A stretch of 9,554 bases of DNA. Source: a virus (lineage: Duplodnaviria > Heunggongvirae > Uroviricota > Caudoviricetes). How positions within the stretch are numbered: position 1 is the stretch's first letter; every line of letters starts with the position of its first letter. The notes beneath the pieces were generated by a model. It had not been told where the DNA came from, made no database searches, and worked only from the letters and a program-made list of their open reading frames with translations. Location of the stretch: the IMG/VR virus record IMGVR_UViG_2778261030_000015; one strand, 5' to 3'. Both the position numbers and the translations under genes were made by a program. Positions 167 through 486 of the stretch are shown here, in pieces.

Positions 167-192
167 ACAAAAAAGGCCCGCAAAAGCGAGCC
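167..192 (-). terminator. Rho-independent terminator closing the tRNA cluster
   Basis: Minus-strand RNA forms a 7-bp stem (GGCUCGC/GCGGGCC, one G-U pair) with UUUU loop followed by UUUUUUGU. On the plus strand the same stem has a C-A mismatch, which favours minus-strand function. Confidence 0.6.
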
Positions 193-208
193 GGGAAAAT
201 AAGTGTAG

Positions 209-282
209 CGCGTTGTACTGGAGTCGAACCAGTGACCGATTGCTTAGAAGGCAATTGCTCTGTCCTGCTGAGCTAACAACGC
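209..282 (-). tRNA. tRNA-Arg (anticodon UCU, reads AGA); CCA not encoded
   Basis: Reverse complement folds as a cloverleaf: acceptor GCGTTGT/ACAACGC, D-stem GCTC/GAGC, anticodon stem ATTGC/GCAAT with loop CTTCTAA, T-arm ACTGG-TTCGACT-CCAGT, discriminator G. The next bases are CTA, not CCA. Confidence 0.75.
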
Positions 283-295
283 AGAATACCGATAA

Positions 296-371
296 TGGAC
301 CACCACCGGGGACTCGAACCTCGCACACTCAACTTAAAGGGTTGACGCTCTTTCCTGATGGCTAGTGGCGG
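296..371 (-). tRNA. Non-canonical tRNA-like gene (anticodon loop CCUUUAA, UUU/Lys if read canonically); possible variant or pseudo-tRNA
   Basis: A 76-nt reverse complement ending in CCA has a 7-bp acceptor stem (one G-U), perfect anticodon stem TCAAC/GTTGA and T-loop TTCGAGT. It also has C at position 1, C33 instead of U33, a weak D-stem and an A-C mismatch in the T-stem. Confidence 0.45.
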
Positions 372-372
372 T

Positions 373-448
373 TGGTGGCCCTTGCTGGATTTGAACCAGC
401 GACCTGGCGATTATGAGTCGCTCGCTCTCACCACTGAGCTAAAGGGCC
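373..448 (-). tRNA. tRNA with CAU anticodon; probably tRNA-Ile2 (lysidine type, reads AUA), Met by anticodon alone
   Basis: Reverse complement GGCCCTTTAGCTCAGTGGTGAGAGCGAGCGACTCATAATCGCCAGGTCGCTGGTTCAAATCCAGCAAGGGCCACCA is a canonical cloverleaf with encoded CCA. It closely resembles my recollection of E. coli ileX/ileY. Confidence 0.85.
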
Positions 449-457
449 GGGCGCAGG

Positions 458-486
458 ATAATAACGTTACGAAATCAATGTTGCAA
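458..486 (-). promoter_or_regulatory. Sigma70-type promoter driving the tRNA cluster
   Basis: Minus strand reads TTGCAA (486-481), a 17-bp spacer, then TATTAT (463-458). The first tRNA begins 10 nt downstream of the -10 element. Confidence 0.55.

Follow-up and report, generated by a model that had tools for sequence, protein, structure and literature searches.

The tRNA genes of Stx2 phages always lie between q and stx, with nanS-p downstream (PMC7366253). In phages of the 933W / Sakai Sp5 type, such as Stx2a_F349 (AP012530), they form an ileZ-argN-argO cluster that follows Q, pR' and tR' and stands ahead of the late or cargo genes. Phage vB_EcoS-689R5 (ON470583) carries a cassette of four genes, Ile2(CAU)-Lys(UUU)-Thr(UGU)-Gly(UCC). 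In the PPompW prophages (LC567822 and related records) a three-gene set has already been deposited as tRNA-Met, tRNA-Lys and tRNA-Arg.

We analysed a 9,554-nucleotide stretch of Caudoviricetes DNA (the window) whose left end contains a cluster in the same slot as that of the Stx2 phages. From position 110 or 119 to 9554 it is 99.9% identical to the PPompW prophages and to the ydfJ-side prophage of E. coli O111:H- 11128, which carry the same trio; for 110-9554 against O111:H- 11128 and PPompW_132418 the figure is 99.89%. The object is therefore already known, since identical DNA has been deposited in the PPompW records with three tRNAs annotated. We interpret the region as a standard tRNA cassette of E. 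coli lambdoid prophages, here of the non-Stx kind found in EHEC/EPEC lineages (O111, O55:H7, PPompW). Past the left edge of the window there are probably no toxin genes but a TerB-family gene or pseudogene, DUF3927 and a sialate esterase of the NanS-p-like kind, and intact prophages go on from there to holin, lysozyme and Rz. We put the probability of this explanation, taken as a whole, at roughly 0.85. All of the cassette-related features are on the minus strand, and in the direction of transcription they are as follows.

644-1339, minus strand: late antiterminator Q (Pfam PF06323, 303 bits)
632-660, minus strand: pR'-like late promoter, TTGCAA-17-TATATT, overlapping the 3' end of Q (promoter scan)
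554-583, minus strand: tR'-like bidirectional hairpin terminator, 3' of pR' (terminator scan)
458-486, minus strand: sigma-70 promoter-like site, TTGCAA-17-TATTAT (promoter scan)
373-448, minus strand: tRNA-Ile2(CAU), ileZ-like, CCA encoded (ARAGORN, as Met(cat); Rfam tRNA model, 72.5 bits, E 9.4e-15)
296-371, minus strand: decayed tRNA-like gene of an argN-derived Lys(UUU) lineage (ARAGORN only, as "Lys(ttt)")
208-282, minus strand: tRNA-Arg(UCU), argO-like (ARAGORN, as Arg(tct); Rfam tRNA model, 68.1 bits, E 1.5e-13)
167-192, minus strand: intrinsic terminator after the tRNA genes, hairpin at 175-192 (terminator scan)
1-125: degraded contig end, with the garbled start of a TerB-family gene (minus strand) and an inflated poly-C, collinear with 8886-9016 of the O111:H- 11128 locus (L001)

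The Q protein is 99.6% identical to the WP_001059384-type Q of O111 11128. We infer from its position that the site at 632-660 is pR'. The hairpin at 554-583 was called by the terminator scan on the plus strand; on the minus strand, TTTTGTTGTG comes after it. Weak Rfam matches near tR' (OrzO-P at 27 bits, STnc370, isrK and leader families) fell far below their thresholds and were set aside as reflecting only the terminator hairpin. The promoter-like site at 458-486 has a GC-rich discriminator and ends 9 nt 5' of the first tRNA, with the GC-rich CCTGCGCCC between it and the 5' end of that gene. Its -35 and -10 elements are kept across several divergent upstream families among 122 loci. The terminator at the other end of the cassette, GGCTCGC-TTTT-GCGGGCC, consists of a GC-rich stem of 7 bp, a TTTT loop and a T6 tail (TTTTTT), and shows no variation among Stx2a_F349, phage Evi, O111 11128 and PPompW. 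The original prediction, made from the sequence without database searches, had placed the cluster between a Q/pR'/tR' module and a terminator and had given it a promoter and terminator of its own, and the scans bear out both points.

The two outer genes both pass the gathering threshold of the Rfam tRNA covariance model (RF00005, 29 bits). In DNA identical to the window, PGAP labels the CAU gene tRNA-Ile and the UCU gene tRNA-Arg; the label on the CAU gene means the lysidine-dependent Ile2 type. The ileZ of the window matches that of Stx2a_F349 base for base, and the argO-like gene differs from its Stx2a_F349 counterpart at two positions. In the alignment the Stx2a_F349 copy of argO ends in CCA, whereas the Arg(UCU) gene of the window ends in CTA (206-208, minus strand) and so does not encode CCA. 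The lack of an encoded CCA is unusual among E. coli tRNA genes, and maturation of this transcript would need 3' trimming and the CCA-adding enzyme. The outer two genes are functional-looking tRNAs. The original prediction had counted three tRNAs. ARAGORN likewise gives three genes and the covariance model takes only the outer two; the middle gene, which failed the Rfam tRNA model, is better regarded as a tRNA-derived relic.

The middle gene had no match to RF00005 even at E<=10 with permissive filters, and its best match within the Rfam clan was tRNA-Sec, at 15.7 bits and E=3. PGAP leaves the 76-nt allele of the window type unlabelled, whereas it labels the intact 77-nt allele tRNA-Lys. The window allele has lost one T from the D stem (GCTC to GC-C, a 1-nt deletion); in addition, its T stem contains an A.C mismatch, and pair 3:70 of its acceptor stem is G.U. 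The same 76-nt allele recurs in O111, O55:H7 and PPompW, and it is therefore inherited and not a sequencing error.

The acceptor, D and T arms of the middle gene are homologous to those of argN, which fills the same slot in Stx2 phages and is there a canonical tRNA-Arg(UCG) scoring 43-56 bits. The anticodon arm, TCAAC-CCTTTAA-GTTGA, has the anticodon UUU and a C at position 33. Position 33 is normally an invariant U in tRNAs. In an alignment of 28 distinct middle genes, cloverleaf pairing was 95.4%, against 29-53% when the partners were slid, and both partners of the pairs 7:67, 28:44 and 31:41 differ precisely along the division into UCG and UUU classes. Because pairing has been kept and these changes are double-sided, the UUU class is a structurally maintained anticodon switch and not the product of random decay. 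With the Rfam tRNA model, intact 77-nt alleles of the UUU class reach 37-53 bits. Of 5426 complete E. coli genomes, 798 have a middle gene of the UUU type, and PGAP annotates 279 near-identical intact copies (at least 99% identity) as tRNA-Lys.

The window gene takes the form of the Lys(UUU) type in its 5' part and anticodon arm. Over the 3' acceptor strand and the spacer, GGTGGTGGTCCATTATCGGTATTCT, it is identical to argN in Stx2a_F349, where the four-gene cassettes have GGTGGCGGTCCAGTGCC. The gene is therefore a chimera, in which a Lys(UUU)-type 5' part and anticodon arm have been joined by recombination to an argN-identical 3' strand and spacer. On these sequence comparisons, the middle gene of the window is a relic of an argN-derived tRNA-Lys(UUU) lineage. 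The middle position decays repeatedly: in 26 of 120 loci (L016, L022, L026, L032 and about 22 more) it is occupied by a tRNA-like gene whose anticodon arm is scrambled, AGAGCAGACGACACGATAACAGGGTTGTTGGTGCGGGGGCGGG, and which none of the tRNA finders calls. Single-sequence minimum-free-energy folding was discarded as a test of the middle genes: it gave a cloverleaf for the canonical allele of locus L011 only, and the bona fide argN of Stx2a_F349 fails it as well. The pair counts on the alignment took its place.

Set against the Stx2a_F349 cluster, the window has identical promoter hexamers, terminator and ileZ, again with Ile2(CAU) as the first gene and Arg(UCU) as the third. It differs in having a middle gene with UUU, C33 and the D-stem deletion in place of argN (UCG), in its argO without encoded CCA, and in being followed by a G-tract and a TerB-family gene and not by stxAB. 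With the four-gene cassette of vB_EcoS-689R5 it shares the Q family (98.7%), ileZ, the promoter and the Lys(UUU)/C33 anticodon arm. Unlike the window, that cassette has a Lys gene with an intact D stem (44.4 bits), lacks Arg(UCU), and continues with Thr and Gly tRNAs and then a holin. The four-gene cassette stands directly before a holin in 16 of 120 loci (L004 at 4845-5154, L010, L047, L048, L119 and others).

The original prediction regarded the arrangement as that of Shiga-toxin-converting phages and expected cargo below position 165, where it saw only a poly-C tract and the window edge. Positions 1-125 had no BLAST match. The stretch is nevertheless collinear with the start of a TerB-family gene, the garbled bases 1-60 corresponding to the first codons of that gene on the minus strand. 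Against L001 it has 54 mismatches, 36 of which are miscalls of another base as C, and 78 of its 125 bases are C. In relatives the true homopolymer measures 4, 7, 11, 12, 16 or 17 nt, and only the last 7-17 or so C residues before position 126 match it. We therefore rejected a real, phase-variable poly-C of about 65 nt, given the collinearity with normal sequence and the bias of the errors to C. The long poly-C is mostly an artefact of a contig end degenerating at a homopolymer, and a contig that ends in miscalled bases at such a site can mimic a long poly-C tract.

The G/C homopolymer between the tRNA terminator and the TerB-like gene is itself variable (window ~110-125; L001 9001-9016; L002, which is PPompW_132418, 9002-9008; also L005, L018, L071 and L072). 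In PPompW_132418 the IS110-family element ISEc20 has inserted into it, leaving C-runs on both flanks, and the lysis region is gone; the left end of the window, by comparison, has the TerB-type flank.

Four relatives carry this Q allele (99.6% protein identity) together with the same tRNA trio, namely O111 11128, UTME-9, O55:H7 CB9615 and the IMG/VR locus L018, and in all four the downstream order is a TerB-family pseudogene, DUF3927 and a NanS-p-like esterase (SASA/DUF6645). In O111 11128 the DUF6645 esterase is cut by IS1203, after which come tail remnants and nleG7. UTME-9 has an intact DUF6645/SASA esterase of 617 aa, followed by a class II holin, YdfR, a lysozyme, an antirepressor-like gene and Rz. 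O55:H7 CB9615 has the order of UTME-9 and ends in holin, RrrD lysozyme and a lysis protein. In L018, which is 99.77% identical over window positions 119-2283, the same order is confirmed by Pfam and runs on to holin, lysozyme and Rz. In PPompW_132418 the ISEc20 in the homopolymer is followed by terminase genes, and in phage Evi the same cassette precedes an intact TerB-like gene, DUF3927 and S/R/Rz. No stx was found downstream of the cassette in the four relatives or in PPompW_132418. Leftward of the cassette, then, relatives show lysis genes (three of the four) or an IS1203 interruption, which is the outcome that the original prediction had itself named as contrary to its expectation of cargo.

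The TerB-family gene is pseudogenized in each of the four relatives by an internal stop or by an N-terminal frameshift at an A-run (L001 8486-8914, L126 5433-5861, L127 6340-6768, L018 2267-2677).

It could still be supposed that the window represents the Q-tRNA region from a Shiga-toxin-converting phage, with stxAB just past the left edge. The cassette is 94.6% identical to those of many Stx2a and Stx2c phages, and one IMG/VR locus, L092, has stx2A 267 nt after the cassette and a Q that is 98.3% identical to that of the window. However, in positions 126-166 and the homopolymer the window follows the non-Stx lineage and departs from Stx2a_F349, positions 1-125 run along the start of the TerB gene, and the four relatives and PPompW_132418 have no stx at this place. 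We give this possibility almost no credence.

The distribution of the cassette agrees with its assignment to E. coli lambdoid prophages at large. Of 5426 complete E. coli genomes, 3061 contain a match to region 167-486; a single genome can carry as many as 13 copies, and 222 genomes reach at least 99% identity. Through the 3' end of ileZ we retrieved 120 IMG/VR loci, about 80 of which have an identifiable downstream gene. In about 10 of those 80 stx2A is directly downstream; the others have TerB-like and DUF3927 genes, a NanS-p-like esterase or a holin. The tRNA genes are thus a constant feature of Stx2 phages, but the converse fails, and the cassette is not specific to Stx phages. A tRNA trio after Q is no predictor of Shiga-toxin cargo, because the cassette occurs in more than half of the complete E. 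coli genomes and mostly in non-Stx prophages. What survives of the Stx-phage-style arrangement is the homology (94.6% over 158-487) and the slot; the toxin cargo that it implied does not. A literature search on ileZ/argN/argO and on the effects of prophage-encoded tRNAs on Stx returned nothing specific in the collection of papers searched.

The original prediction also described the cluster as one of rare-codon tRNAs. We counted the relevant codons in four gene sets, given here per 1000 codons.

41 core genes: ATA 2.6, AGA 0.9, AGG 0.7
Prophage genes in the window: ATA 10.6, AGA 8.9, AGG 6.2
PPompW structural genes: ATA 4.7, AGA 3.7, AGG 5.7
stx2AB: ATA 36.6, AGA 14.6, AGG 4.9

For the outer tRNAs the description is upheld, as the codons of Ile2(CAU) and Arg(UCU) are 4-10x enriched in the prophage genes relative to the core genes, and the counts support a supply role for these two tRNAs. 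The benefit would fall mainly to accessory and early genes, since ATA is only mildly raised in the late structural genes of PPompW (4.7/1000). For the middle gene the label does not apply: it has the anticodon UUU, and AAA is frequent in all of the gene sets, at 34/1000 in the core genes; the UUU gene therefore cannot be a rare-codon supply. A likely beneficiary of the Ile2 tRNA is paa, because it has 7 ATA among its 253 codons. This gene, for the AcfC-family adhesin Paa, is located at 4070-4828 (minus strand) in the prophage early region and adjoins a frameshifted fimbrial pseudogene (4989-5522).

From the arrangement of these signals we infer promoter activity, read-through and tRNA maturation at the cassette. 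In the lysogen, the sigma-70 promoter of the cassette would direct constitutive transcription, with a leader of about 2-3 nt, that stops at the 175-192 terminator. Upon induction, Q-modified polymerase starting from pR' would read through tR', the cassette and its terminator into the downstream genes. After lysidine modification tRNA-Ile2(CAU) would read AUA, tRNA-Arg(UCU) would read AGA and AGG, and the two together would raise the decoding capacity for these codons.

Since codon supply does not account for the middle gene, another role may be considered for that position or for the cassette as a whole, in which tRNAs that anticodon nucleases (PARIS AriB, PrrC, P2 Old) do not cut replace or shield host tRNAs. 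PARIS AriB cuts E. coli tRNA-Lys(UUU) at U36AAUC|A41, and changes at U39 or A41 block cutting (PMC12409363). Recent work shows that host tRNAs lost to cleavage by defence nucleases can be replaced by tRNAs of phages. The phage 21 tRNA-Thr(UGU) protects against P2 Old (PMC12445682). The middle family switched from Arg(UCG) to Lys(UUU), and because three compensatory stem changes accompany this switch its structure was maintained by selection. The prophage Lys gene has U36AAGUU41 where the host has U36AAUCA41, AAA is not a rare codon, and 16 of 120 loci combine Lys(UUU) with Thr(UGU), reported as the main pair of targets of AriB. Compared by sequence with the T5 tRNA-Lys(UUU) that counters PARIS AriB and the phage 21 tRNA-Thr(UGU) that counters P2 Old, the family shares the UUU anticodon and a changed 3' strand of the anticodon stem at the AriB site, 39-41. 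The differences from these nuclease-resistant phage tRNAs are its descent from an arginine tRNA, its U73 and C33, and the damage to the window copy.

The Lys-type gene of the window has lost a D-stem base and is rejected by both covariance-model detectors (Rfam and PGAP), so that any function has probably been lost at this locus. The discriminator U73 and the C at position 33 also count against this role, and charging with lysine is hypothetical. In L004 the AriB site UAAUCA is retained in the Thr(UGU) gene, and for that reason we dropped the idea of an AriB-resistant Thr(UGU) in the four-gene cassettes. Literature searches found no experiment on these prophage tRNAs. An anti-defence function of the cassette or of its middle slot, in place of rare-codon supply, thus seems quite improbable. 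The more specific proposal is that argN (Arg-UCG) was remodelled, by compensated stem changes and a C33 substitution, to a tRNA-Lys(UUU) that lost the AriB motif, that intact copies act as nuclease-resistant replacement or decoy tRNAs against defences aimed at tRNA-Lys, such as PARIS AriB and PrrC, and that the window holds a decayed remnant; this we consider unlikely, though plausible for intact alleles. Such a role is less probable for the window locus than for the Lys(UUU) family. If it were true, the post-Q slot of temperate lambdoid phages would be an anti-defence cassette and not a codon supply. The anticodon-switched Lys(UUU)/C33 gene family is the single lead that merits pursuit.

The chimeric structure of the middle gene, with its Lys(UUU)-type 5' part and argN-identical 3' part, could also suggest that the tRNA genes serve mainly as conserved homology blocks for lambdoid recombination, through which Q and late or cargo modules are swapped, with decoding secondary. 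The same cassette is joined to at least three Q families and to several different downstream modules, and tRNAs have been treated as markers of a captured stx region (PMC7366253). Recombination at conserved sequence is, however, a consequence and not a selected function, and the perfectly conserved cloverleaves of the outer tRNAs, together with the conserved promoter, argue for selection on the RNAs. We therefore regard this explanation as very improbable and retain the decoding cassette of non-Stx lambdoid prophages described above.

Two further kinds of small-RNA element were observed in the window or its relatives. Related loci have copies of the STnc100 sRNA family after the tRNA cassette or the cargo region (L003 3431-3642, L005 4131-4317, four copies in L011 at 2265-3380, and also L008, L016, L017 and L024). 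The window contains no STnc100, and the nearest copy would lie past its left edge. On the minus strand the window does contain a hok/sok type I toxin-antitoxin locus (3732-3881 and 3579-3734), whose sok RNA reaches 103.9 bits; the identical O111 sequence has a hokD annotation.
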